Below, one piece after another: positions 14,757 through 27,155 of a stretch of 32,000 nt of DNA. Made by a program: the position numbers and the translations under genes. The notes below the pieces were generated by a model. It made no database searches. It was not told the DNA's origin and saw only the letters and a list, made by a program, of their open reading frames with translations. The stretch's first letter is position 1. Each line of letters starts with the position of its first letter. The stretch is from Pyrobaculum aerophilum str. IM2 (GTDB lineage Archaea; Thermoproteota; Thermoprotei; Thermoproteales; Thermoproteaceae): NCBI RefSeq assembly GCF_000007225.1, contig NC_003364.1, positions 2,100,001 through 2,132,000 on the forward strand. Reading direction: 5' to 3'.

Positions 14757-15638
14757 GTGTTAGAACTGGCTTTGTTATTGCTACTGCTGGCTTTTACGTT
14801 TAATGACGGCGTATTTATTGGAATTGGGAAAACAGGGCCTGTGGAAATACCGCTGGATAGGCATATAGTAATAACAGGCCCGACTAGAAGCGGCAAGACT
14901 AAACTCGCGAAGAAAATCGTGGCGAGGTCGGGGTTGCCGGCTCTTGTGCTTGATTGGCACGGCGAGTACGAAGGGCTATCAATAGATGCAAGAAAAATAA
15001 AAATTGACATTGAGAAATTTGATAAAAAATTACTAGTAGAGATTTTGGGCCTCTCTCTTAATCTAAACGAGCCAAGTATTTACTTCCTTTATAGGGCAAT
15101 ACGTAACCAAAAACTACGAGACATTAAAGACGTAGTTGCCGCGTTAGAGGACTTTTTAGTGGCCACGAGGAGCGAGGTGGAGATGAAGGCTGCAATTGCC
15201 AGAAGGCTTGAATACGTAATGGACGTGTTTGAAAAAGGCATTATACCGGTGGAGAAAATTTTTAAATATAAAAAGACTATTATTATTAATTTATCTAAAT
15301 TGAAATTATATGAAGAAAAAATATTAATATCACTATTTATATTATCATCTTTATATAATTACTTATTTGAGAAAGGGCCGTCTAAAAAAGTCGACAGGCT
15401 ACTCGTAGTAGACGAGGCGCAGAATATTTTAAAACGCGGCGATGTTGTGAAATACTTGGTTTTTGAAAGCGCCAAGTACGGCCTGAGATTAGTGCTTGTG
15501 AGTAACGAAATGCCCCCAGAGGATATACTAGTCCATGCAACTCTAGTGTTAACTCGCCCTCATTACGCATACAGTTTAAAAACTAAGAGGGCGGCGGTGA
15601 TCCGTGACAACACAATAAAAGAGTTATGGATAATATAG
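14757..15638 (+). CDS. mini HerA/DUF87-type P-loop ATPase
   Basis: Walker A GPTRSGKT, LDWHGEYEG (HerA-like D-HGEY), Walker B LLVVDEAQN; 293 aa. Confidence 0.7.
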   Translation: MLELALLLLLLAFTFNDGVFIGIGKTGPVEIPLDRHIVITGPTRSGKTKLAKKIVARSGLPALVLDWHGEYEGLSIDARKIKIDIEKFDKKLLVEILGLSLNLNEPSIYFLYRAIRNQKLRDIKDVVAALEDFLVATRSEVEMKAAIARRLEYVMDVFEKGIIPVEKIFKYKKTIIINLSKLKLYEEKILISLFILSSLYNYLFEKGPSKKVDRLLVVDEAQNILKRGDVVKYLVFESAKYGLRLVLVSNEMPPEDILVHATLVLTRPHYAYSLKTKRAAVIRDNTIKELWII

Positions 15639-15820
15639 AAAAAATATTGAGGGCTCTGGGTTTGAAAAAAGATGAAATTACTTCTTGTGATATCTATATT
15701 AACTATTTTATGCAATATTTAGCTAGTATTGAGAGGAAAATCGCTGAGTTAAAAAGCAAAGTTGATTACCTAGAGGAAAAATGCATTAAAAATGGAGAAG
15801 AAACCGATAACTCAGGCTAG
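15626..15820 (+). CDS. small coiled-coil protein; 3' end lies in DR2
   Basis: 64 aa; overlaps the upstream ORF by 13 nt; the C-terminal VDYLEEKCIKN is encoded by the repeat. Confidence 0.45.
   Translation: MDNIEKILRALGLKKDEITSCDIYINYFMQYLASIERKIAELKSKVDYLEEKCIKNGEETDNSG
15762..15810. repeat. direct repeat DR2, left copy (49 bp)
   Basis: 43/49 identical to 27107-27155 by hand alignment; the first 23 nt are perfect (TTGATTACCTAGAGGAAAAATGC). Confidence 0.8.
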
Positions 15821-15900
15821 TATAAAAAGGGAAAATCTCCGAGTTAACCTGTCGCGCCCTCCGTCATATCATGTCCCTGTAGTGTTGAATGGCTATATTG

Positions 15901-16004
15901 CCGTCCTCGAAAAATTTCTCAGAGGCTAAAAGCCAAGCTTTCCGACCTGGATAATTCAGGAAATAAAGCCGAAAAATTAGCGTTCAAGAATTCTTTCAGA
16001 ACGG
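15901..16004. repeat. ~105-bp dyad-symmetric module, copy C (most degenerate)
   Basis: CCGTCCTCGA-N5-TTCTCAGAG ... CCTGGATAATTCAGG ... TTCAAGAA-N5-TCAGAACGG; same architecture and spacing as copies A and B. Confidence 0.65.
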
Positions 16005-16033
16005 CATATCCGCAGGATCGAGCAGGAGTTAGG

Positions 16034-16046
16034 AAAAAAGGGGGGG
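16034..16046 (-). terminator. C7-T6 tract directly after the TnpB-like stop
   Basis: Minus strand reads CCCCCCCTTTTTT starting 2 nt after the TAA at 16048-16050. Confidence 0.3.
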
Positions 16047-16047
16047 T

Positions 16048-16950
16048 TTAAATTAATTCGGAGAACCGCCTCTGCGCCCACAGCGCCAACACTTTCTCCC
16101 TCGGCGCCTCAAAGCCGCACTGCTGACACCTCAGCTTCCTATCCGACAGCTCCCCCATTTCTATCCCACACCGGGGGCACACCGCGGAGTACAGCCTGTC
16201 CTCACGGTACGGCACTCCGTACCATGAGGCCAGCTCTCTAATCCGCCTCCTCAGCCTCTCCGCGTTGAGGCGGATTCCTCTGTCTGAGACCTGGCGGGGG
16301 TCTGGCACGCTTACCACAATCACCGCCTTGTTGCGCCTCGCCTCCATTACTAGCTTCTTCGCCGTTTCATCTTCAAACTGGCGCAAGATGTTTTTCACGC
16401 GTCTGCGGAGCGCCGCTACTCTTTCACAGTGGTCCTCCTCCCCGCTCGCACAGAGGGCCTCAAGGCGGGAGATTTCCCTCTGTATGCGGCCAATTTTCCC
16501 CAAGTCCGGCCTGTAGACGCCTTTTTGCAGTACGCGCTCCCCATCTACAGTCGCCCACACCACGCCGTTGTGTAGAGCGATGACATCAACTGCGGTTAGG
16601 CGGGTAGGCTGGTAGGGCTCCGTCTCTTTGGCGAATACCAGCGCCACGTTAAAGGTGAATAAGTCAGACCGCCCAGTGGGGCCCACCCAGGCGTAGGCCT
16701 CCTCCAGCCGGCCGCCCTCCTTCAGCCTCTGGAGTATCCCCCTCACTTCTGCCCTCCTCAGCCTTATTACAATTGCGCCTTCGCCCTGTCCAATTCTGAT
16801 CTCGCCCCCTTGGAGATCGACAGAGAACTGATCTCCGCGGAGTGCCACCCGCTTGTTGATACCCCCTTGCGCTCCCAGAAACTCCACCAGCTTCTCTGAC
16901 GGAATCTCCTCCACTTTTCTCCGTATAAGCACTGTTCTATACGCCATCAT
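16048..16950 (-). CDS. compact TnpB/IS605-OrfB-like protein with non-canonical RuvC residues
   Basis: LTAVDVIALHNG (RuvC-I-like Asp), helical RRRVKNILRQFEDETAKKLV, ELASWYGVPYREDRLYSAVCPRCG-x13-CQQCG Zn finger in the family-typical position; 300 aa. Confidence 0.6.
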   Translation of the reverse strand: MMAYRTVLIRRKVEEIPSEKLVEFLGAQGGINKRVALRGDQFSVDLQGGEIRIGQGEGAIVIRLRRAEVRGILQRLKEGGRLEEAYAWVGPTGRSDLFTFNVALVFAKETEPYQPTRLTAVDVIALHNGVVWATVDGERVLQKGVYRPDLGKIGRIQREISRLEALCASGEEDHCERVAALRRRVKNILRQFEDETAKKLVMEARRNKAVIVVSVPDPRQVSDRGIRLNAERLRRRIRELASWYGVPYREDRLYSAVCPRCGIEMGELSDRKLRCQQCGFEAPREKVLALWAQRRFSELI

Positions 16951-16998
16951 GACTCTTCCTCCGCACTCCCAATTTTGAACAATTTTTCACCGCATGCT

Positions 16999-17101
16999 TT
17001 CCTGAATCCGGTTCTGAGCGGCGGTTTTTGCGCCTTAGCGTCCTGAAAAATTCAGGAAACAGAGGCGGGAAAAACCGGCTCAGGAGGGGGCTCAGGAGAC
17101 G
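16999..17101. repeat. ~105-bp dyad-symmetric module, copy A
   Basis: TTCCTGAA-N5-TTCTGAG ... CCTGAAAAATTCAGG ... CTCAGGAG-N5-TCAGGAGACG; right arm overlaps the ATPase stop codon (17092-17094). Confidence 0.7.
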
Positions 17102-18582
17102 TCCTCTGGCCGGGCCAGCCGGATGAAGATCGGCGCCCTCCCGCCGAACCGGACAACGGCGTGGCGCTCCCCCGGTAGCGACTCGGTGGCCACCCTCTCC
17201 AGCACGGAGCGGTCTATCTGCACGGCGCGGGACACCCTCTCCAGCTGCTCCGGCGCTATCGCCAGCACGGCCTTGGTGTCCGAGTTGGCGATGATGGTGG
17301 AGAGCGGCCCGAACTCCTGGACGTCCTGGCTTATGGCCACGAGCCTGACCCCGAACTTCCTGAGGCCGCGCCACGCCAGCGCCAGCGCCTCTAAGTTGCG
17401 GAGCAGCAGGTGGGCCTCGTCTATGTAGATCTCCAGCTTCGGCCCGCAGGACGGCCTGGGGCACGCCCGCTTGGCCCACAGCGCGTATGCGAACAGCCAC
17501 GAGACGAGCCTCATGACGGAGGCGGGGCCCTCGTCCCCGTACGTGGTCACCGCCACCGCGCCAGACGTGGCGAGCCCCGCGGGCCTGGCCCGGGCCAGGG
17601 ACTTCAACCGGCCGTAGATGGAGTCGACGGCCATGGCGCTGAGGGGGTCCCGGATCCTCGCGAGCGCGCCGACCAGCCCGGCGAGGTCGGCGGAGCCCCC
17701 GGCCCTCTCCAGGGCGTTGAGGATCACCGTGTAGTGCACGTCGTGCACCGCCACGCCGGCGGCCCTCAGTATGTCCAGGAGGAGGTCGGCGTCTGAGGGG
17801 CCCTCCTCGCCGCTGTCGGCCGAGAATGCCATCTCCGGTATGTGTTTCCTGGCGTCGATCACGGCCGTGGCGACGTCGGCCCAGTGCCCGTGGGGATCTA
17901 TGGCCACCACTAGCCTCCCCAGCCGCCTGGCCTGTGCGGCCTGGGCCTTCGCCCACGTGGTCTTGCCAGATCCCGTCTTGCCGATCACCACGGCGTGGGG
18001 GCTCTCCAGCTGGTAGGGATCCATGCAGACCTCCCTCCCCCTGTCGTCCCAGCCCAGCCTGTACGCAGAGGGGCCGCACTGGAAGGGCAACAGCATGAAG
18101 GCATAGGGGGTGAACTCCGCGAGGTCGAAGGTCAGGGCGTCCACGGTGCTGGGCCTCCCCACGGTGAAGGCTAAGGGCCTCCCGTCCACCACCCCCGCAA
18201 CCGCGAAGGCCTCCTCCCTCAGGTGGACGATCCTGTGCCTCACCGCCGCCACCTCCTCGGCCCGCATCATGCGGACTCGGCTGAGGAGGACCGCCGCCAT
18301 GTGCTCCTGCCGGAGGGCCCGCTTCGTGATCCTCTGCAGGAAGCCCCTGTTGGGCGCCCAGGTCACCAGCGCCCTGCTGACCATCAGCTGGGAGACCTTC
18401 GCGATCGAGTGCACCTCCTCGGGGCGCAGGAGGGCGAAGAGGGAGTCGTTGGCCTCCAGGCCCCGCCCGGCGGCTGGCGTCCCCGCGTCCGACGCCAGGA
18501 GGAGGAGGTAGGCCAGGGCCCCGAGGACGGCGCCGGGGAGGGAGGCGGTGGCGGCGTGCACCTGGGATCGCCTGGCGGGCAT
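17092..18582 (-). CDS. HerA/VirB4-like (DUF87-type) ATPase with N-terminal hydrophobic anchor
   Basis: Walker A GKTGSGKT, AIDPHGHW, Walker B EIYIDEAHLL; N-terminal LPGAVLGALAYLLLLA; alternative start at Met67 (18384) forms a TGATG stop-start overlap with the upstream ORF. Confidence 0.8.
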   Translation of the reverse strand: MPARRSQVHAATASLPGAVLGALAYLLLLASDAGTPAAGRGLEANDSLFALLRPEEVHSIAKVSQLMVSRALVTWAPNRGFLQRITKRALRQEHMAAVLLSRVRMMRAEEVAAVRHRIVHLREEAFAVAGVVDGRPLAFTVGRPSTVDALTFDLAEFTPYAFMLLPFQCGPSAYRLGWDDRGREVCMDPYQLESPHAVVIGKTGSGKTTWAKAQAAQARRLGRLVVAIDPHGHWADVATAVIDARKHIPEMAFSADSGEEGPSDADLLLDILRAAGVAVHDVHYTVILNALERAGGSADLAGLVGALARIRDPLSAMAVDSIYGRLKSLARARPAGLATSGAVAVTTYGDEGPASVMRLVSWLFAYALWAKRACPRPSCGPKLEIYIDEAHLLLRNLEALALAWRGLRKFGVRLVAISQDVQEFGPLSTIIANSDTKAVLAIAPEQLERVSRAVQIDRSVLERVATESLPGERHAVVRFGGRAPIFIRLARPEDVS

Positions 18583-19985
18583 GGGGGCGGGGGCGGATCG
18601 TCCGTCACGTTCGGCGGGGGCGGCGGCGGCGGAGGCGGCCTCTGGATGGCGGGGCGGACGTCGTGGTAGGTCACGCCGCCAGGCACCGCGAGTCCCGCAT
18701 AACTTCTGCTACTCGATATAAACGCGACGTAGTCCACGCTGGCACTGGTTATGCTTTCTCTGTTGTGGTAGCCGAGGTTCTGCACTACGGTTCCCACGAT
18801 GTTGGTGCCCAGGATGTAGAACCGCTCGACCGGGGCCACCACAGTGCCGCCACTGGGGCTGTAGGACCAGTCATAGAGGGCGTTGAACCGCTCCACCTGG
18901 GCGCCGAAGCTGAGGTAGAAGTACCTGTAGCTATCGGGCCACACCGCGTAGGCGTTGGGCACCACCGAGTCGGGAACCTGTAGCGGGCCGACGGGCGTCT
19001 CAATGGTGATGGGCGTGGAGCCGAAGGAGATCTCGGCCGCTGGCACGAGGGTGATGTCCTGAGAGACGTAAGCGAGACCTTGCTCTATGGTCTCCCGGCC
19101 AGCCGCCAGCCAGACGGTGGGCCAGCTGTTGGCCACAATGCCGATCCACCTGAAGAACGCCCTGGCTATGTCCACGTCAGAACGGAGTGGGCTGACAGCA
19201 CTCCCCGGGTTGGCGAGCTCCACCCCCTCAGTTCCGGGGACGACCGTCCCGCTCTGCCCCATGAACGTCAGGTTGTACTTGGTGCTGAGTCTCTCCTTGG
19301 CTATGCCACCGAGCGGGACGTACCAGCGACCGTCAGCGCCGCCATTGCGGCTCACTGTCACGCTCCCGACGAGGGCCTCCGTAGAGCCCTGTGGCGTGGC
19401 CACCACGTACGCCACGGCGAAGCCGTAGCACGTATCGCTATGCTTCTTCCACACGTGCCCTACAACGACGAGATCGCCAGCTGGCCACCAGGCGCCTACG
19501 TCCTCTGCCACTACTTCAACCAAGTAGCTGTTTGCCCACGACGCCCTCCCGCCGCCAGCCCTCTGCAGGTGCTCTGGCGTGAGGTATTCATCAATCCTGG
19601 TGGCGTTCTGCGGGACGCAGGTCTCCGGGTCGTACCCCCTGTAGACGCGCCACTCGCTTCCCACCCTGGCAAGGCTGTACAGGCCGTACCTCACCGTGGG
19701 CACCGTGTTCTTGGGGGCCCCCACGGCCATGACCACCCACTGTGGCGGGAGGACGCGGGCCTTCATGTCAAACCTGAAGGGTATGCCGATGGAGGACAGT
19801 CCCAGGCCCTGAACGCTGTCTGGCGCGCCGTACCAGGACTCCGCCCTGTTGCCCGCAGTCCTCCTGAACTCCGACTGCTCGAAGGCGGCCAGGAGGCCCG
19901 CCGGCCCGGCCCTCCCCCAGGCGATCCAGGCGGCCGGGCTACCCCTTACCGCGTACCAGACGAAGTGGAAGTACTCCTCCCTCAT
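18384..19985 (-). CDS. large beta-rich hypothetical protein with C-terminal poly-proline tract
   Basis: 533 aa; N-x-S/T sequons; PPPPPPPPPNVTDDPPPPPCPP; no signal peptide of its own; in frame with the upstream ORF across a TAG. Confidence 0.6.
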   Translation of the reverse strand: MREEYFHFVWYAVRGSPAAWIAWGRAGPAGLLAAFEQSEFRRTAGNRAESWYGAPDSVQGLGLSSIGIPFRFDMKARVLPPQWVVMAVGAPKNTVPTVRYGLYSLARVGSEWRVYRGYDPETCVPQNATRIDEYLTPEHLQRAGGGRASWANSYLVEVVAEDVGAWWPAGDLVVVGHVWKKHSDTCYGFAVAYVVATPQGSTEALVGSVTVSRNGGADGRWYVPLGGIAKERLSTKYNLTFMGQSGTVVPGTEGVELANPGSAVSPLRSDVDIARAFFRWIGIVANSWPTVWLAAGRETIEQGLAYVSQDITLVPAAEISFGSTPITIETPVGPLQVPDSVVPNAYAVWPDSYRYFYLSFGAQVERFNALYDWSYSPSGGTVVAPVERFYILGTNIVGTVVQNLGYHNRESITSASVDYVAFISSSRSYAGLAVPGGVTYHDVRPAIQRPPPPPPPPPNVTDDPPPPPCPPGDPRCTPPPPPSPAPSSGPWPTSSSWRRTRGRQPPGGAWRPTTPSSPSCAPRRCTRSRRSPS

Positions 19986-20033
19986 CAGAATCCCGTCGGT
20001 GGTGCCGTCTGTGTTGGTGTTGTACTGTCCCGG

Positions 20034-20825
20034 CTACAGGCCGCTCATCTGGAGGAACCTGAGACTGCCGCCAGCACCCTCCAGGTACTCGTGGGTCACC
20101 GTCATCTCGTAGCTACCGAACTGGTCGACAGACGGCACGTTCTCCCAGTACTGGGCGCCGAAGTCGCCCGGCTCCACCGTCTCCTTCCCGTACCACGGCA
20201 CCGTCAGAGTGCACGCGTACTCCCCGCTGTCCGCGGTGTCGAGGATCAGCAGGTCGCAGGACCTCTCGCCAGACTGCCAGCCCTCGCCCCTCACGTCCTT
20301 GGCCGTGGTGACCGTGACGGTGGTGCTACCGACGAGTTCACCGCTCGTCTTGTTGTAGTACTCGCACCTTATCACGTACTCGGTCACTGTGGCCGTCCAC
20401 TGTCTCGGCGCGGAGAACCGCACGGACGCCTGCACCCGGTACTCGGTCTTCAGCGGGTTGGGATCGCCCCACTGGGCCGCGTAGGGCTCCGAGCCGCGGG
20501 CCTCCTGCGCTTTATCAGTCCTCGGGAAGCCGGTCTCCACCCTGTAGCTGAACACCAGCCCCATCTCGAAGTCGAAGGCGTTGCGGGTGACAGTCCGCGA
20601 CGTCTGAGACGCCACGTACGTCCTCAGCGATATTTCCGGATCGGCGGGAGAGGGACAGAAGCCTTCAATAACTTTAGGATCGTTCATATCTTTGCGCTCT
20701 CCACTTATTGTTATACTATCCGGATCTACTTTGAAGAATCCGCCTTTGTCGCTGTTGTCGCCACCGTACGCCAGCAACGCCAGTAGCGCCAGGACTGCCA
20801 GCACCGCTGGCCAGGGGTTCCGCAT
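20034..20825 (-). CDS. secreted hypothetical protein
   Basis: 263 aa; signal-like MRNPWPAVLAVLALLALLAYGG; TATA-like TAAAGTTTT about 15-25 nt upstream of the ATG. Confidence 0.6.
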   Translation of the reverse strand: MRNPWPAVLAVLALLALLAYGGDNSDKGGFFKVDPDSITISGERKDMNDPKVIEGFCPSPADPEISLRTYVASQTSRTVTRNAFDFEMGLVFSYRVETGFPRTDKAQEARGSEPYAAQWGDPNPLKTEYRVQASVRFSAPRQWTATVTEYVIRCEYYNKTSGELVGSTTVTVTTAKDVRGEGWQSGERSCDLLILDTADSGEYACTLTVPWYGKETVEPGDFGAQYWENVPSVDQFGSYEMTVTHEYLEGAGGSLRFLQMSGL

Positions 20826-20883
20826 GAGGGGGAGGGGGAAAAACTTTAGTGTTGATTGTGGGGTGGGAGGAGGGGTGGCAACG

Positions 20884-21045
20884 CTATCTGCGCCTGGCGA
20901 GGCGCCCCGCCGCCAGGCCCGCGGCTAGGGCGGCCGCGGCCAGCGCGGCCGCCGCCGTCCAGTCCACCTCCCTCACCCTCACCGTCTCGGTGGCCGTGGC
21001 GACGCTGGTGACGGTCTCAGTGACTGTGGCGGTCTCCGTGGCGGT
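20884..21045 (-). other. in-frame continuation after TAG: Thr-rich stalk plus C-terminal TM anchor
   Basis: My translation: TATETATVTETVTSVATATETVRVREVDWTAAAALAAAALAAGLAAGRLARRR*, in the same frame as ORF 21046-21861. Confidence 0.5.
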
Positions 21046-21861
21046 CTACCTCACGGTGACTGTTGTGGTGGCCACGGCCGTTGCCGTCACGGTTCTGGTC
21101 ACTGTGGTGGTGACGTTGACGTAGACGGGCCTCACCTCCTCCCTTATGGCGACGCCCCTCGGGCCGGGGTAGCTGAAGTTCGGCCACTCAACGTCGGCGC
21201 TGTAGATGAGCTCGGCCCTCCGGACGCCGTCGCCGAAGAGGGTCGCGAAGGTGGAGCCATTTTTGAGTCTCACTAAATACGCGCATTCGTTCCACCACAG
21301 GGCGTAGTCGTAGTCTCCAGTAGTGCCATGTATTTTTCTCATATACTCCCACCTCTCCATAAACGAGCTACCCGTCACGATACAGGGAGTCCTCTTCACC
21401 ACCTCCCCGGCCCTGTAAACGTCCAGTCTCCTCCCGTCAAAGGCGGCAATGCCGACTCTGGTGCCGTTTTTGTAGACGTAGAGGACGACGTCCCTGCCCC
21501 GCGTGGAGTTGAGGAGATCGGCGCGGCTCACCCTGGCGCCCGGGAACAGCTCTTGCAGCTTCTGCAGGATCCTGTGCACGAGCAACGCCGCCGCCACCTC
21601 CCTCTCGAGCATCACGCCACTTGTGGCGAAGAGGGGCCCGTGCACCGGCCAGCTGCCCGCCAGGTAGGCCGCCAGGGGCTCCACAAAGGCGTCTGGAGGC
21701 CGCACCGGTAGCCACATCTGCACCTTGGGCTCGGTCGGTAGTGAATCCCACCAGTAGCCCGGCCTGAAGTTGCCCTCCCCGTCCACCACCAGGTGGTATG
21801 TGCCGTAGTCCAGCTCGGCCCTGTCCCACAGCGACACGGGCCAGAACCAGGTGGCGCTCAC
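21046..21861 (-). CDS. hypothetical surface protein segment (GTG start, ends at in-frame TAG)
   Basis: 271 aa; several N-x-S/T sequons; C-terminal T/V-rich repeat VNVTTTVTRTVTATAVATTTVTVR; no signal peptide of its own. Confidence 0.55.
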   Translation of the reverse strand: MSATWFWPVSLWDRAELDYGTYHLVVDGEGNFRPGYWWDSLPTEPKVQMWLPVRPPDAFVEPLAAYLAGSWPVHGPLFATSGVMLEREVAAALLVHRILQKLQELFPGARVSRADLLNSTRGRDVVLYVYKNGTRVGIAAFDGRRLDVYRAGEVVKRTPCIVTGSSFMERWEYMRKIHGTTGDYDYALWWNECAYLVRLKNGSTFATLFGDGVRRAELIYSADVEWPNFSYPGPRGVAIREEVRPVYVNVTTTVTRTVTATAVATTTVTVR

Positions 21862-21969
21862 GACGCACGAGATCCCCTCTACGCAGAACGGCCGGGCGCC
21901 GCTGGCCGGGCTGGTCGTGTAGAGTCCGGTCTTCCAGGAGGTGAGGGCGCCGTGGACGACCCTGGCCTG

Positions 21970-22704
21970 TCACTCGTAGCTGGTGCTGCCGTTGCCCGGC
22001 ATGACGAACAGGTAGTACAGCACGTAGTCGGCCTCCAGGGACACGGAGAAGTAGTCGGTGTAGGCCACCACGGCGCGTAGCGTGCCGTTGGCCCCCAGCC
22101 ATATGAGGGCCAGGCGGCCCGGTCTCTTGAAGCGGAAGGCGAAGGTGGCGTAGCCGTAGTGGAGCCTCTGGGTGCCGATCACTGTCACCGAGCCGAGGAA
22201 TACCTGCCTGACGTCGTGCCAGCTGACGCAGGCCTCGGGCTCCGGCTGGGCGGTCAGCGGCCTGTCCCAGTCCGCGGGGTAGCCGACCAGAACCACCTGG
22301 GCCCTCTTGCAGGCGAAGAGGGATATCGGGAAGTCCAGACTGCCGTAGTAGTAGTGGACGACGCCCGGATCCGTGAACCACGTGACGTTCACGAAGCCGA
22401 TGCGCGCGGAGCCCCGCTCGAAGGGCGGGCTCTCCCCCAGCCTGAGGAGCCTGCCAAGGTAGCCGCTGACGGGCGGCCTTCCCACCCAGAAGAGGTAGAC
22501 GGGCTCTGAGGCGTTGAGAACCAGCCGGTCTCCGGGGACGACCGCGGCCGTGAAGTTGACCCAGCCGCCTGGCGTGTACAGGGGGCCCTCGGACACGTAC
22601 ACCAGGAGCCGGTAGTCCCAGTACTCCAGCTCCAGCCCCAGCGCGGTTGCGGCCAGCAGTAGCGCCACCAGGGGGACTGCCCTCACCATGGGGAACGGCC
22701 CCAA
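21970..22704 (-). CDS. secreted hypothetical protein (probable true start ATG at 22689)
   Basis: Signal-like MVRAVPLVALLLAATALG from the ATG at 22689; the TATA-like box sits 23 nt upstream of that ATG but abuts the TTG at 22704. Confidence 0.65.
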   Translation of the reverse strand: MGPFPMVRAVPLVALLLAATALGLELEYWDYRLLVYVSEGPLYTPGGWVNFTAAVVPGDRLVLNASEPVYLFWVGRPPVSGYLGRLLRLGESPPFERGSARIGFVNVTWFTDPGVVHYYYGSLDFPISLFACKRAQVVLVGYPADWDRPLTAQPEPEACVSWHDVRQVFLGSVTVIGTQRLHYGYATFAFRFKRPGRLALIWLGANGTLRAVVAYTDYFSVSLEADYVLYYLFVMPGNGSTSYE

Positions 22705-22705
22705 G

Positions 22706-22718
22706 CTATAATTTAAAG
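22706..22718 (-). promoter_or_regulatory. TATA-like box (CTTTAAATTATAG on minus strand)
   Basis: Position relative to the ATG at 22689 fits a leaderless transcript. Confidence 0.45.
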
Positions 22719-22728
22719 ATTTAGCACG

Positions 22729-22835
22729 CCGTCCTGAGATGTCTCCTGAGTCGCCAGTTTTCCAGCGGACAGTTCCTGAAAAATTCAGGAACTCCCGCCG
22801 AATTTTTCGTCGATTCAGGAACTAACTCAGGACGG
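22729..22835. repeat. ~105-bp dyad-symmetric module, copy B (best preserved)
   Basis: Left arm CCGTCCTGAGATGTCTCCTGAGTC and right arm GATTCAGGAACTAACTCAGGACGG are reverse complements at 19/24; each lies 22 nt from the central GTTCCTGAA-AAA-TTCAGGAAC. Confidence 0.8.
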
Positions 22836-22853
22836 CGGGAGGGGGTAGGGGGA

Positions 22854-23009
22854 TTATGTCGACACGAGTAGCGCCACCGGCTCTCCCTCTCTGTCGGTCA
22901 CCAAAATCGCCACCTCACCGTTCTTCTTGTACTCGGCGACTGTGTCTAAGGGCGCCAGCGCAAAGCACCTGTCGGCGGTTTCTATCAAAATCTTCCAGAG
23001 GCGTACCAC
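22854..23009 (-). CDS. possible small ORF or gene fragment (CBS-like pattern)
   Basis: Frame open 23069-22854 with no ATG; first GTG at 23009 gives 51 aa ending ...LDTVAEYKKNGEVAILVTDREGEPVALLVST*; below the ORF-track size cutoff. Confidence 0.2.
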   Translation of the reverse strand: MVRLWKILIETADRCFALAPLDTVAEYKKNGEVAILVTDREGEPVALLVST

Positions 23010-23332
23010 CGTCCACTGGGCGTCTTCTGGGCCTTCACACAGCCTTATCTTTACCAGCCTGGCGTTGCGCTAGTGAATCAATATCTTAATTCGCACTGGG
23101 GCGCCCGTGGCCATGCTTCGAGTTAATAGGCCGAGGTGGTACGTAGACGGCTACTACGTCGAGAGGGACGGCCCCCGCCCCGTCGCGGCTGTAGCAAAAA
23201 GCGTTGCGGCCACATGGCGCGCCCTCTTGGATCCTTCGTCCATCGCCATGTACTCTACCATGGGCGGGCACATGTCGACAGAGCCCCCTTTAGTTGTTTT
23301 TAAACCCCCAGTCATACTTATAATAGTTATAC

Positions 23333-23773
23333 GTGTACGTGGTCTACCTCCTCTACGCCGAGCTCGGGGGGAGGGTCGTGCGCTACGTCGGCTCCGGGAA
23401 GTGGCCGGGCCGGCTGAGGAGCCACGTAAGGGGGCACTCCTCCCTGGCCAAGCGCGGGGGGAGGCCGCTCTTCGCCGTGGTGTTAGCGTTTACTGAGGAT
23501 CGGGAGACGGCCTACCGCATGGAGGCCTATTTCCAGCGCCTTCTGGGGCACGAGACGGGCCGCCGTGTCCGCAAGAGGCCCCTCGCCGCCAGGTTGCCGA
23601 GGAGGTTCAGGCCAGTGAGATTCGGCGGCCTCTTGGTCTTCGTCCCCGACGGGGAGGGGGCAATCCCCGCGCGGCGGGGGATCAGCCCTCCAATGGCCGA
23701 AAGCCCGCCACCCGCAGGCCAGGGAGCCACCACAAGCAAGGAGCCAGGCCCCGGTGGCCCGGGACAGGCCTAG
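23333..23773 (+). CDS. GIY-YIG domain protein with Arg/Pro-rich tail
   Basis: N-terminus YVVYLLYAELGGRVVRYVGSGKWPGRLRSHVRGH ... ETAYRMEAYFQRL fits the GIY-x10-YVG...R..H...E pattern; A/T box TTTTTTAAA ~30 nt upstream of the GTG. Confidence 0.55.
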   Translation: MYVVYLLYAELGGRVVRYVGSGKWPGRLRSHVRGHSSLAKRGGRPLFAVVLAFTEDRETAYRMEAYFQRLLGHETGRRVRKRPLAARLPRRFRPVRFGGLLVFVPDGEGAIPARRGISPPMAESPPPAGQGATTSKEPGPGGPGQA

Positions 23774-23992
23774 TGGGCCTCTGTGGCCGTGGTAGCCACC
23801 GCGGCCAGGCGGACGGGCCTTGCACGGCCTGACCACAGGCCCGGAGGGGGTGAACTCGACGAACTCTATGTGGGGCCAGGCGGAGTACATCACCACGCGG
23901 CCGCCGGACTTCATGCGGGACACCCACGGCCTCACCTGCCCAGAGGCCTCGTAGACGTGGACCACTTGCCACCTGACCCTCGCCACCGCCAC
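23483..23992 (-). CDS. doubtful ORF antisense to the GIY-YIG tail
   Basis: GTG start; only the first ~60 aa look protein-like; lies in GC-rich DNA where long spurious ORFs are frequent. Confidence 0.2.
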   Translation of the reverse strand: MAVARVRWQVVHVYEASGQVRPWVSRMKSGGRVVMYSAWPHIEFVEFTPSGPVVRPCKARPPGRGGYHGHRGPLGLSRATGAWLLACGGSLACGWRAFGHWRADPPPRGDCPLPVGDEDQEAAESHWPEPPRQPGGEGPLADTAARLVPQKALEIGLHAVGRLPILSKR

Positions 23993-24130
23993 ATTCTCTT
24001 AACGTGGCAACAACGCTTTTTGCCTCAACTGCAGGCGTGTCGCCTGCCCCTCGGAAAGAGATTCAGGGCGGTACATATGTCGATATGGCATACTTTAATC
24101 AAAATTTCTGGATGTCGCGAAAACTAGCTC

Positions 24131-25225
24131 ATGAAGGTAGCAGAGGAGGCTTTAAAGTACAGGTCTGAAATTAAGAGACTGTTTGAGGAGGCGGAAATGG
24201 CAATAGAGCAGGGCTCAAAGCCGTGGAGCGACTTGAGGAGAGTTGTGACTTACATGAACAGCAGGCACAATAGGGATTGGCTAAGGTCTGCACACGTAGC
24301 CGTCGCCTGGATCCTACTCGAGGCGGGGCTGAGGGAGCTCGGCGACGTGAGGGACAGAGCGCTATCTGCTCTTAAAGAGATAGCGGAGAGACTGGCAAAG
24401 GGGGAGGAGGCAGAAGTGCCAGTGAAAGAGATATCGGAATTTGTGAGGAGGGCGCACGACGTGGCGCACCGCCTCGAGTTGATATTCGAGGACATCACGA
24501 GAAACGCCGAGAGGTATGGTAGAACTAAAGAGGAGGCCGAGACGATAAGGAGGACTTTCGCCGTAACCGAAGTGGCCAGGGAGCTGGCCGTCGCCACAGT
24601 GAGGAAGCTCAACAAGCTCAGCGAAGCGACGCTCGCCGACAAAGTTGTTGCATTTTTCTACAGCCTAGCTGAGGGCACGGCTTGGAGCCGTATAGTACTG
24701 AACGCCCTGAAGAGGGGAGAGGTATACGGGGCACTGGCCAGATCGCCAACAACGGCGTATACCAAATACGGTGGCGAGCGGAAAAAGACAAGGGGTAAAA
24801 GAGAGAGGCTAAGCGCCATCGTCTCCCGCCTCGCTCTCTGGCTCTCTGAAAGGGGCGTGGACAGGGCCACGATGATACGTGAGGGCGATACGGTGAAGGT
24901 CGTAGTAAATGGCGAGACGGTGGCCGAAGTCGAGACTAAGACTATCAAGACTGGGGGGAGCATTATTTTCTATGCGCAGGGCAGGTGGGTAGAGGAAGAG
25001 GGAAAAACAGCCGCAAAGCTGATAGCGAAGATAAAGCCTGCGAAGGCAGAGGACTACGAGCTAAGGGCGCTGTTGGCCACAGACGGTAATTATACCGCAG
25101 AGGGCAAGGTCATTGCTGGCACCACCTCAGTGCTACAGGCTGTGATCTACAAGCGGTTTGGGATGGAGGTCTCACACACGGGGAAGGGCGACTTGACCAG
25201 GTACGGCCTAAAGCCCATACTTTAG
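24131..25225 (+). CDS. helical hypothetical protein (possibly paREP2a-like)
   Basis: 364 aa, Glu/Arg/Lys-rich helical N-terminal part; C-terminal LRALLATDGNYTAEGKV motif; family name is from memory of P. aerophilum annotation and is unverified. Confidence 0.55.
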   Translation: MKVAEEALKYRSEIKRLFEEAEMAIEQGSKPWSDLRRVVTYMNSRHNRDWLRSAHVAVAWILLEAGLRELGDVRDRALSALKEIAERLAKGEEAEVPVKEISEFVRRAHDVAHRLELIFEDITRNAERYGRTKEEAETIRRTFAVTEVARELAVATVRKLNKLSEATLADKVVAFFYSLAEGTAWSRIVLNALKRGEVYGALARSPTTAYTKYGGERKKTRGKRERLSAIVSRLALWLSERGVDRATMIREGDTVKVVVNGETVAEVETKTIKTGGSIIFYAQGRWVEEEGKTAAKLIAKIKPAKAEDYELRALLATDGNYTAEGKVIAGTTSVLQAVIYKRFGMEVSHTGKGDLTRYGLKPIL

Positions 25226-25231
25226 GCTTGG

Positions 25232-27118
25232 TTGTCGACGCAAAAAGGCGGTGAAGAGGTGATCGAGATAGTTAGGCATGATTTAGAGGAGGGGCTAAGG
25301 GCCTTGCTGAGCAACGCTGAGCTGAGGGAGGAGCTTAGGGAAAAGGCGTTAAGACTCCTTGACGAGATGAAAATCTCAGTTCAAGGCGCAGACAAGAGTG
25401 AAAAGGGTAGAGAGAGGGTAGAGGACACAAGGAATAAGATAAAGGAGCGTATAGAGAAGTTCTTAACCGAGTTGAGGCTTGGAGAGAACAGTTCCGTCTG
25501 TCTTGTCAACTGTCAATTCGGCGAGCCCGTGCTGACGTATAAGCACGAGCCGTACGCCCGCATAATTGCGCCGTTAGTACATTACATCGCCTCAAACGCG
25601 CCGGAGGAGGAGGTCATGAGATTCCTAGCATATGCTGTACTTTTCGACGGAAGCATAGAACACGACAGAGTATCCCTCATGCTGGGCAATTTCCACGTAA
25701 AGGAGGCGTCAAAACGTCTCCCGCTTGATATGTACGACAAAATCGCTCTGTATATAATCCTCGCCGCGAAATACGGCGTGGGTATCAGGACAATTTTCGT
25801 CGGGGAGTATGAGACAATATTGTACTTTGACAGGAAGTATGTTGCAAAAATGTTCTCCCTTGTGTGGGGAGATCTCACAACCCTGTGGAGATTAGGCAGA
25901 ACGCTGGTATCACGCGCCGATCACATTTTCAAGAAGCTTGAAAACATTAGGATGTATGTTGAAGAGTTTGCAAACAGGCTGAAAATTGTCTGCATTCTAA
26001 AGAGTTTCTCAAACACAATCCCCTATGTAACGTTGTTGTTCTGGGAGGACAGCTGGCGGGAATTTGCACGTATATACATTAAATGGTGTCGGAATAAGCT
26101 GTGCGCTTACTTTAGGGGCGCCAAGGAAAAGGCAAAGCGCGCGGCTTCTGTGCTTAGCGCACTGGGCGCCACAGTGATAGTAAAGAAGTATGACGGGGAG
26201 TGGCGCGTCGCCCTTAAGGCGGACTCCATTACTGCCGTCCGCCGGACAGAATGGCTCGACGCAGTCCGCGCCCTCGTGGAGGAACTACACAGGAGGGGCA
26301 TAATAAGCGGGCGACAAAGGAGGCGATTGCTGAGGGAGATCGACGCCGGACCCAACGTGGTAGAGATGGCGGGGGTAGAATTCACCGTTAGAACAAAGGG
26401 CAGGCAGATCATAATAAAGCGCGAATCACTGTTGGCGGAGGTCATAAATTCGACAGTAGAGACACTCAAATCTGCCGGTCTCGAGGAGGGCGCCCACTTC
26501 ATTGCGAAAAGGCCTGATGGCAGTAGCTTGGGCTACGTGTACATAAGTGTGCCGACCGGGCTGTGGCAACTGGAGGAGTTAAGGAGACAGGGTATAGACT
26601 GGGCCGACAGAGCGCTAAAGCGCCTGGAGGAGATTGCAAAGGCCAGAGGCTTCTACGACGTGCTACAAAAGCACTTAAGATTGGCCAGGGAAGCGGAGAC
26701 CGTTAATCCGCGGGGACTGGTAGTAGAGGATCCTGGGGCGGGCGTCAGGGCCGAAATTAGAGACGTGAGGGTGGAGTGGACTGGCCGGAGGCCGAGAGTC
26801 GTGATCGAATACGAGGCGGGCGGACAGATCAAGTCGTTCTCCTTTATCTGGGGGCTGAAGACGCGGAGGGCAATTGTGGCAACTGTGAAACTAAACGCTG
26901 AAAGGGCCCTACTCTTGGCCGCCCTGACTGGCGACGGGAGGCTGAAGGGGAAGAGGGGGGCTTTACAGCTCCACGCCAAGCACTTGCTCGCCCTGACCAA
27001 GTACAAGGGCGTGGGTTTGTCCCCCGTTTTTTCCCTCCCGGTTTCACGGCTCTTTACAGATATCCTCCCGTGGCTGGTTCAGTGGCGGGGATGTGCTATT
27101 TGGGGATTGATTACCTAG
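25232..27118 (+). CDS. large hypothetical protein with LAGLIDADG-like motifs (possibly paREP2b-like)
   Basis: 628 aa; FLAYAVLFDGSIEHDRVSLML (~aa 131) and LLAALTGDGRLKGKRGALQL (~aa 561); 6-nt gap to the upstream ORF; stop lies inside DR2. Confidence 0.55.
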   Translation: MSTQKGGEEVIEIVRHDLEEGLRALLSNAELREELREKALRLLDEMKISVQGADKSEKGRERVEDTRNKIKERIEKFLTELRLGENSSVCLVNCQFGEPVLTYKHEPYARIIAPLVHYIASNAPEEEVMRFLAYAVLFDGSIEHDRVSLMLGNFHVKEASKRLPLDMYDKIALYIILAAKYGVGIRTIFVGEYETILYFDRKYVAKMFSLVWGDLTTLWRLGRTLVSRADHIFKKLENIRMYVEEFANRLKIVCILKSFSNTIPYVTLLFWEDSWREFARIYIKWCRNKLCAYFRGAKEKAKRAASVLSALGATVIVKKYDGEWRVALKADSITAVRRTEWLDAVRALVEELHRRGIISGRQRRRLLREIDAGPNVVEMAGVEFTVRTKGRQIIIKRESLLAEVINSTVETLKSAGLEEGAHFIAKRPDGSSLGYVYISVPTGLWQLEELRRQGIDWADRALKRLEEIAKARGFYDVLQKHLRLAREAETVNPRGLVVEDPGAGVRAEIRDVRVEWTGRRPRVVIEYEAGGQIKSFSFIWGLKTRRAIVATVKLNAERALLLAALTGDGRLKGKRGALQLHAKHLLALTKYKGVGLSPVFSLPVSRLFTDILPWLVQWRGCAIWGLIT

Positions 27119-27155
27119 AGGAAAAATGCTTTAAAAATGACAAAGAAACAAATAA
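27107..27155. repeat. direct repeat DR2, right copy (49 bp)
   Basis: 43/49 identical to 15762-15810; contains the stop of ORF 25232-27118 and the ATG of ORF 27137-27547. Confidence 0.8.

Follow-up and report, generated by a model that had tools for sequence, protein, structure and literature searches.

Archaeal surface glycoproteins of the S-layer type, such as the haloarchaeal S-layer glycoprotein and SlaB of Sulfolobus, combine a signal peptide, an N-glycosylated ectodomain, a Thr-rich stalk, and a C-terminal transmembrane (TM) anchor. Recurrent loss-of-function allelic series are known from surface or receptor genes under selection, as in the loss of phage receptors by bacteria, and certain phages have reassigned stop codons outright, with TAG- or TGA-recoded genomes and suppressor tRNAs. 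More broadly, archaeal genomes contain nonsense-interrupted genes that are annotated as adjacent, same-frame open reading frames (ORFs), the so-called interrupted coding sequences (PMC8211752). Readthrough of stop codons, in turn, is on record in Archaea only for selenocysteine (Sec) and pyrrolysine (Pyl), in addition to −1 frameshifting in Sulfolobus fucA, according to a 2021 review (PMC8211752). Here we set against these systems a locus of Pyrobaculum aerophilum str. IM2, which lies in a 32,000-nucleotide stretch of contig NC_003364.1 (positions 2,100,001 to 2,132,000; hereafter the window, to whose first letter all coordinates refer). A single 607-codon frame on its minus strand (22704..20884) contains two in-frame stops and appears, from its coding signal and its relatives, to be one gene, named gp1 here.

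The account that we favor, and hold to be probable, is that gp1 is a single surface glycoprotein gene, borne on an integrated element and cut in IM2 by recent nonsense mutations.

The reading frame and its pieces

Counted in codons from TTG 22704, the frame extends to a true stop, TAG 20886-20884, and its only internal stops, as read from the sequence, are a TGA at 21972-21970 (codon 245) and a TAG at 21048-21046 (codon 553). The current annotation recognizes within it ORF1 (PAE3540) and ORF2 (PAE3538), both labeled "hypothetical," and leaves the tail unannotated. PAE3540 (21973..22689, minus strand; 239 aa) supplies the signal peptide and the N-terminal part of the ectodomain, with four conserved N-x-S/T sequons and two conserved Cys, and matches residues 1-234 of the homolog P0002 collinearly. 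It opens at ATG 22689 with MVRAVPLVALLLAATALG, a typical signal peptide; the residues MVRAVPLVALLLAATALG and MRRSALVLGLLLLAAAATA are kept in the family alignment, as judged from the sequence and not by a dedicated predictor.

The piece ends at the TGA of codon 245 (21970..21972), where the frame reads STSYE-X-QARVVHGALTSWK (X = TGA); an Arg codon, AGA, occupies this position in the P. aerophilum alleles L010, L013, L016-L019, and L027, and a sense codon for Arg or Glu in the homologs. Between the TGA and the annotated GTG of ORF2 lies an unannotated, stop-free linker of 36 codons (21862..21969, minus strand), which is in frame with ORF2 and conserved as coding sequence. Its pattern is GAL..W..GLY..P..G..P.C.....C, and the residues that are invariant in homolog alignments extend from G247 to C275. 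PAE3538 (21049..21861, minus strand; 271 aa from the GTG) contributes the C-terminal portion of the ectodomain together with the beginning of a Thr/Val stalk. It contains the conserved sequons 477 and 525, a sequon at 394 that occurs in three of four family members, and the conserved Cys436 and Cys469 (P0005 numbering).

The second stop, TAG 21046..21048 on the minus strand, falls within the Thr-rich stalk, where a 12-nt unit, (T/G)AGACCGCCAC(G/A), is tandemly repeated (21037-21060, minus strand) and the frame reads TTVTVR-X-TATETATV (X = TAG). Codon 553 is GAG in L013, and it is missing by deletion from L020 and L021. The last piece (20884..21045, minus strand) comprises 53 unannotated codons that encode the Thr/Val-rich remainder of the stalk, an Ala/Leu-rich hydrophobic TM helix, AAAALAAAALAAGLAAG, and the basic tail RLARRR, followed by TAG 20886-20884; in alleles P0001, P0008, P0010, and P0012 it forms part of the translated protein.

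The GC content of third codon positions (GC3) is 0.925 in ORF1, 0.944 in the linker, 0.841 in ORF2, and 0.925 in the tail, as compared with 0.46-0.72 at the other codon positions. With GC3 at 0.84-0.94 in each, all four pieces share one coding signature, and because the linker and the tail are in addition conserved as protein in distant homologs, the frame is more than a chance arrangement.

Upstream of the gene, a TATA-like, A/T-rich box (TTTAAATTATA; 22707..22717, minus strand) can be read from the sequence ~24 nt before ATG 22689. Transcription in P. aerophilum is leaderless, and the position of the box implies that the gp1 mRNA would be leaderless too. A scan for sigma-70 promoters and terminators, the model for which is not applicable to Archaea, found nothing. 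Just upstream of the promoter region, contig L003 from the Joint Genome Institute (JGI; contig positions 9827-9856) has ~30 nt in place of the ~19 nt found in the window (22833-22853) and is otherwise identical. A palindromic motif, CCTGAAAAATTCAGGAA, occurs three times, at 15946-15973, 17042-17069, and 22775-22802; two copies flank the TnpB-like paREP12 gene, the third lies just upstream of the gp1 promoter, and the Logan contigs L004 and L006 break right beside that third copy. Contigs that start at 22760 were considered as markers of a transcript start, a reading that was set aside in favor of a more likely break at the thrice-repeated motif.

Homologs and predicted architecture

An exhaustive search with HMMER, in which the linker plus ORF2 was compared with 1.84 billion representatives, returned two clusters only: that of gp1 itself and P0002, an uninterrupted protein of 579 aa that matches the query with its residues 235-512. 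At 46% identity, the alignment of P0002 with the conceptual IM2 protein extends over their full length, from the signal peptide and the ORF1 part through the linker and the ORF2 part to the Thr-rich stalk, EVDW, the TM helix, and LARRR, and the GAL, W, GLY, and two Cys of the linker are invariant in it. A pattern scan of species-representative genomes added two relatives from Pyrobaculum metagenome-assembled genomes, L014 (616 aa) and L015 (594 aa), each encoded by one ORF, and a metagenome scan added one more, partial copy. In all, three homologs from other Pyrobaculum are 41-46% identical to gp1, 579-616 aa long, and collinear with it from the signal peptide to the LARRR end. At the positions of the IM2 stops, the homologs L012, L014, and L015 have sense codons.

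Conservation extends to the features expected of an exported protein. Ten of the 12 Asn of the IM2-type protein lie in N-x-S/T sequons; six sequons and all six Cys are kept in four of four family members, the ORF2 part included, and EVDW...LARRR, the T/V repeats, and the Ala/Leu helix are likewise retained in the homologs. Because sequons and Cys are conserved in an ORF2 part that has no signal peptide of its own, this part would be an exported domain that relies on the signal peptide of ORF1. The predicted gp1 product is thus a type I membrane-anchored, heavily N-glycosylated surface protein, laid out as a signal peptide, an ectodomain of ~520 aa with six conserved Cys, a Thr/Val stalk, a C-terminal TM helix, and a basic tail. 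Since the uninterrupted homologs are collinear with all of the fragments, PAE3540, PAE3538, and the unannotated tail derive from one ancestral gene.

These results bear on an earlier note on this DNA, which had described a 607-codon frame broken only by an in-frame TGA and TAG, a 36-codon stop-free linker in the frame of ORF2, and an ORF2 with a GTG start and no signal peptide. The sequence bears out all three, and the GC3 signal in every piece agrees. The note had further proposed that the three pieces make up one surface-glycoprotein architecture, which the collinear, uninterrupted homologs with their conserved sequons and Cys support; had the homologs been three separate genes, the proposal would have fallen, and they are instead single ORFs of 579-616 aa.

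Beyond this small family, gp1 has no match in Pfam, PHROGs, or NCBIfam, and its best match in the PDB, at E=0.014, is not significant. An AlphaFold2 (AF2) model of the family, built from a two-sequence alignment, reached a predicted local distance difference test score (pLDDT) of 37 and is unusable for fold comparison. Neither blastn and tblastn searches of a phage and virus collection nor a scan of IMG/VR with the family alignment matched gp1, and a scan of genome contigs with a single gp1 protein as the query, in which the source genome appears to be masked, was likewise without a match. A word-seeded protein search, whether the query was ORF1 or the complete conceptual protein, also gave no match, and as it missed even the cluster of gp1 itself, it is uninformative.

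Allelic variation among strains of P. aerophilum

The alleles of gp1 were compared among P. aerophilum sequences from several continents that are at least 99.3% identical over the frame. Six allele types were found, with premature stops at four codons (245, 276, 288, and 553); none of the sampled P. aerophilum sequences carries an intact allele, each having a premature stop somewhere. The IM2 allele, with stops at 245 (TGA) and 553 (TAG), is represented by the reference and eight samples. L010 (ERR14821858) combines a stop at 276 (GAG to TAG) with that at 553 and has AGA at codon 245, and L013 (SRR14424469, also present as a 72-kb ENA contig) is stopped at 288 (TGG to TGA) only, with GAG at codon 553. 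The common allele (L016-L019 and L027; WP_287069682.1, 547 aa) is stopped at 553 only and has AGA at codon 245. Finally, L020 and L021 (GCA_038741535.1 and SRR21619488) are stopped at 245 only, as a 12-nt in-frame deletion takes out the TAG-bearing repeat unit and reopens the frame to the membrane anchor. Each stop is a single substitution away from its sense counterpart (AGA/TGA, GAG/TAG, TGG/TGA, and GAG/TAG), and those at codons 276 and 288 fall in the linker or just past it.

The IM2 genome was reportedly sequenced in 2002, and an error of sequencing or assembly in the reference was considered as a source of its stops. No support for this was found, and we regard it as practically negligible. 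The IM2 stops are not sequencing errors, because the contigs of eight other public samples are 100% identical to IM2 across both, with the caveat that IM2 DNA itself may have been re-sequenced in some of them. Moreover, TGA245 recurs in L020 and L021, and TAG553 in L010, L016-L019, and L027, on slightly different backgrounds. The variant alleles come from environmental samples, L013 from a metagenome of neotropical oil-reservoir water (PMC8591294) and L016 and L018 from the Surajkund hot spring in India (PMC9241837), and for this reason are natural variants. Metagenomes in which the element occurs are SRR8369092, SRR8368399, SRR14424469, SRR21619488, SRR24490436, SRR32700097, and ERR14821858.

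As the positions of the stops vary among near-identical strains and the stops are absent from homologs, they are best read as recent, polymorphic nonsense mutations and not as programmed recoding. In IM2, codon 245 would have changed from AGA (Arg), as found in the sister alleles, to TGA by a recent point mutation, and codon 553 from GAG to TAG by a second one. Translation of the leaderless gp1 mRNA would then stop at codon 245 and give at most a 239-aa secreted N-terminal fragment (PAE3540), whereas the linker, PAE3538, and the anchor would persist as untranslated remnants, clean only because the mutations are young. Most likely, the pieces downstream of codon 245 give no product.

It could be argued instead that the gene has undergone fission, its pieces now functioning as genes in their own right, with reinitiation at GTG 21861 driving the translation of ORF2. 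A Shine-Dalgarno-like GAGGGGATC, which agrees with GAGGTGATC in eight of nine positions, can be discerned by eye 9 nt before this GTG; the TGA of L013 is followed by CCC GTG and the TAG of L010 lies 15 nt before the GTG, both of which fit termination-reinitiation, and the first 244 codons are intact in all alleles. Yet ORF2 lacks a signal peptide while its conserved sequons and Cys are of the kind seen in exported domains, the homologs have TCA or TTA (Ser or Leu) in the place of the GTG, and the conserved 36-codon linker would be lost in IM2. A reading of the sequence by eye found no A/T-rich promoter box upstream of ORF2, and the common 547-aa allele shows that the split is not species-wide. 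We therefore consider fission very unlikely.

Tests for recoding

The pattern of stops was also weighed against the hallmarks of translational recoding. ARAGORN found no tRNA genes anywhere in the 32-kb window, the complete element included, and hence no suppressor tRNA of the kind that the earlier note had suggested searching for. No Rfam match at E≤1 was obtained in 15500-24500, and hence no known element of the selenocysteine insertion sequence (SECIS) or pyrrolysine insertion sequence (PYLIS) type. The RNA downstream of the three in-frame stops of IM2, two in gp1 and one in its neighbor gp2 (see below), is no more structured than shuffled sequence (106-nt folds; z = +1.56, -0.95, and +0.50). 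Nor is the position of the stops conserved, given the sense codons of the distant homologs and the conspecific stops that lie at 245, 276, 288, or 553 or are lacking. Pervasive use of one stop codon is not seen either, there being only three in-frame stops (TGA, TAG, and TAG), and both codons still terminate, gp1 ending with TAG and PAE3533 with TGA. Decoding as Sec or Pyl is unsupported, as the sister alleles encode Arg and Glu where the stops lie. Literature searches on the PAE locus tags and on readthrough in Pyrobaculum found nothing relevant.

Programmed readthrough or recoding of gp1 is accordingly not supported by the sequence evidence. Of the two options that the earlier note had left side by side, nonsense inactivation without frameshifts stands on the polymorphic stops and intact homologs, and recoding finds no support, for want of positional conservation and of an apparatus.

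A weaker form of the same idea is that the stops are tolerated or even favored as leaky attenuators, near-cognate decoding of UGA-C and UAG allowing a trickle of full-length, anchored gp1 (and of gp2) and dimming expression reversibly. Its best argument is that every disruption preserves the frame, there being five stops and two in-frame deletions and no frameshift; leakiness would explain this, as well as the precise deletion of the TAG-bearing repeat unit in L020 and L021, which restores the tail, and the absence of a fully intact allele. The downstream frame is intact in all alleles. A stop followed by C is a leaky context in other systems, and C follows three of the five stops (TGA-C at codon 245, TGA-C in L013, and TAG-C in gp2). 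Against this, the stops shift position among strains at least 99.3% identical and are absent from all distant homologs, TGA and TAG are both involved when TAG is also the terminator of gp1 itself, and the window offers no tRNA, Rfam element, or structure beyond the shuffled level. A clean downstream frame is, moreover, uninformative at a divergence of ~0.2%, and readthrough in Archaea is established only for Sec and Pyl (PMC8211752). Leaky reading is therefore improbable; if true, it would be the first stop-codon readthrough outside Sec and Pyl to be described in Archaea.

The partner gene gp2 and the integrated element

Immediately downstream, gp2 (18384..20825, minus strand) repeats the pattern in a second gene. 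A single frame, as delineated by tblastn to L015, comprises PAE3535 (263 aa, with a signal peptide), a TAG at 20036-20034, 16 conserved codons (PGQYNTNTDGTTDGIL), and PAE3533 (533 aa), and it reads MSGL-X-PGQYNTNTDGTTD around the stop. One high-scoring segment pair of the tblastn comparison, at 61% identity with a single 1060-aa ORF of L015, crosses the TAG, which is present in all P. aerophilum alleles examined. The gene is thus predicted to encode a second large secreted protein, broken by an in-frame stop as gp1 is. A PDB sequence search with gp2 gave no significant match. The IM2 gp2 lacks ~340 C-terminal residues of the L015 protein; a simple frameshift of an L015-type domain was rejected as the source of its C-terminus, as no remnant is found in any frame. 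Its Arg/Ser/Pro-rich end is instead an out-of-frame reading of the region that overlaps the next gene.

That gene (17092..18582, minus strand) encodes, by sequence similarity, a P-loop ATPase of the FtsK/HerA superfamily that weakly resembles VirB4, TraD, TrwB, and CedB/CedD. A start at ATG 18582 lengthens the ORF, gives the protein a hydrophobic helix at its N terminus (GAVLGALAYLLLLA), and produces an overlap of ~200 nt with the 3′ end of gp2, which is read in another frame. In L013, the ATPase gene has a 6-nt in-frame deletion (17374-17379, minus strand). One 1-nt indel, at 23317, lies outside every ORF of the gene list.

Both gp1 and gp2 lie on an integrated mobile element, a location already surmised from the sequence and now upheld by an empty site and by flanking repeats. 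P. aerophilum strains L023, L025, and L026 lack the 11,345-bp segment between the repeats and join window position 15804 directly to 27107 in a precise empty site, with flanks 98.4-99.9% identical. The 43-bp imperfect direct repeats, at 15762..15804 (left) and 27107..27149 (right) on the plus strand, are identical to each other at 39 of 43 positions, and GC content is 63-69% over the element core as compared with ~50% in the flanks. The cargo consists of a TnpB-like remnant, the FtsK/HerA-type ATPase, gp2, gp1, a 51-aa ORF, a GIY-YIG protein, and two PaREP2b genes; no integrase or recombinase was recognized among the element genes.

Several other neighbors share a frame across a stop. On the plus strand at 24131-27118, a 364-aa paREP2b ORF and a 628-aa PaRep2b ORF are in the same frame, separated by a TAG (25223-25225) and two codons; Pfam PaRep2b matches the second ORF only, and the pair may represent a further interrupted gene or may share its frame by chance. 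Across single stops, the same frame is also shared by the helicase PAE3526 and a DUF87 ATPase (14733, plus strand), by PaRep2b and a 136-aa ORF (27116, plus strand), and by ORFs of 249 and 121 aa (672, minus strand). Such co-directional pairs occur at about the chance rate of one in three.

Nonsense excess, selection, and decay

Across the alleles, nine substitutions fall within the gp1 frame, four of them nonsense, three missense, and two synonymous. With nonsense expected for ~3.4% of possible substitutions, at least four among nine has P≈1.4e-4, and under the most stop-prone single mutation type (7.2%) the value is P≈0.0025. Elsewhere in the region, more than 30 differences include not one nonsense change. 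The four independent nonsense mutations in gp1, out of nine substitutions in all, together with the lack of an intact sampled allele, suggest selection against full-length gp1, and provided that the core account is right, we lean toward such selection against the anchored protein, as opposed to neutral decay, as the source of the stops. Two reasons for it may be entertained as speculation: the partner gp2 was already broken by its fixed TAG and C-terminal truncation, or an exposed surface protein was a liability, for example as a virus receptor. Adenine-specific, diversity-generating mutagenesis was rejected as the origin of the stops, the substitutions being of mixed types.

Neutral decay of gp1 on a defunct integrated element, with the nonsense alleles a matter of chance and ascertainment, is a less probable but still credible explanation. 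The element does look defective: gp2 carries a fixed TAG and is ~340 C-terminal residues short of L015, the TnpB-like gene is annotated with an "internal deletion," no integrase is recognized, and the other element genes show many missense differences. Once corrected for ascertainment, the nonsense test becomes weak (P from 0.02 to 0.085). Speaking against decay are the four nonsense changes among nine, where 3-7% would be expected, the absence of nonsense from other element genes that should be equally relaxed, and the fact that all six haplotypes are broken although recombination, of which there are signs, could have restored an intact one.

A number of observations nonetheless weigh against the account preferred here, of a gene cut by recent and probably selected nonsense mutations. 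Leaving out the two IM2 stops that led to the locus being picked, two of seven substitutions are nonsense, which is where the P≈0.02 to 0.085 arises. The three "first" stops lie within 44 codons (245-288), a clustering that falls short of significance (P≈0.07). The four-gamete test is violated by some pairs of haplotypes (sites 21972 and 20621), a sign of recombination or recurrent mutation, so that the count of independent events depends on the identity of the sites and not on a clean tree. All five disruptions of gp1 and gp2 are in-frame stops and the only indels in element coding frames are in-frame (12 nt in gp1 and 6 nt in the ATPase gene), when frameshifts too would be expected if the series reflected loss of function and nothing else; the deletion in L020 and L021 takes out the TAG-bearing repeat unit and no more, as though the frame were still of consequence. 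Finally, the absence of translation downstream of codon 245 is a deduction from the sequence.

Implications

In the annotation, PAE3540, PAE3538, and the tail ought to be joined into one disrupted gene and PAE3535 and PAE3533 into another, and the region should be flagged as an 11.3-kb integrated element. The population pattern may be of interest in itself, in that strains from different continents carry different truncating alleles of an element-borne glycoprotein, with no intact copy sampled. If it holds, it would show in a compact natural setting how selection acts repeatedly against an exposed surface protein of a hyperthermophilic archaeon, and gp1 and gp2 would become candidate genes for a virus receptor or for a costly envelope module encoded by the element. 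In addition, their stops offer well-defined natural contexts for the fidelity of termination at ~100 °C.

Comparison with known systems

Measured against archaeal S-layer-type glycoproteins, gp1 is alike in its predicted architecture and its enrichment in sequons, and together with the larger secreted gp2 it recalls the pair SlaB and SlaA. It differs in having no detectable sequence similarity to any described family (Pfam, NCBIfam, PHROGs, and PDB) and no PGF-CTERM motif, and in residing on an accessory integrated element that is confined to few Pyrobaculum lineages.

Programmed readthrough, as in Qbeta A1, murine leukemia virus (MuLV) gag-pol, the luteovirus coat protein-readthrough domain (CP-RTD), and archaeal Sec and Pyl proteins, shares with gp1 an in-frame stop before a C-terminal extension, followed in some instances by C. 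However, gp1 has no positional conservation, stimulatory element, dedicated tRNA, or SECIS- or PYLIS-like structure, involves two types of stop, and has homologs that need no stop. With the stop-reassigned phages, the element has in common that it is mobile and contains in-frame stops in large, structural-looking genes; it differs in that there are only three such stops in two genes, of two kinds, that TAG and TGA are still used as terminators, and that neither element nor window contains a tRNA gene. The series of phage-receptor losses in bacteria resembles gp1 in having several independent truncating alleles of an exposed surface protein in natural populations and a nonsense excess confined to gp1, although only nonsense substitutions occur here, in place of the usual mix that includes frameshifts, and the sample is one of six haplotypes.

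The closest likeness is to the nonsense-interrupted genes of archaeal genomes (PMC8211752). As in these, uninterrupted orthologs exist, the stops are one substitution away from the sense codons of sister alleles, the gene has been split into hypothetical proteins, and the downstream fragments have no start, promoter, or export signal of their own, the Shine-Dalgarno-like motif before the GTG notwithstanding. What distinguishes gp1 is an allelic series with four stop positions in near-identical strains and no intact allele sampled, and a neighboring partner, gp2, that is broken likewise. From its sequence and relatives, gp1 would thus be a standard nonsense-disrupted gene, mis-annotated as separate ORFs and made unusual by its allelic series.

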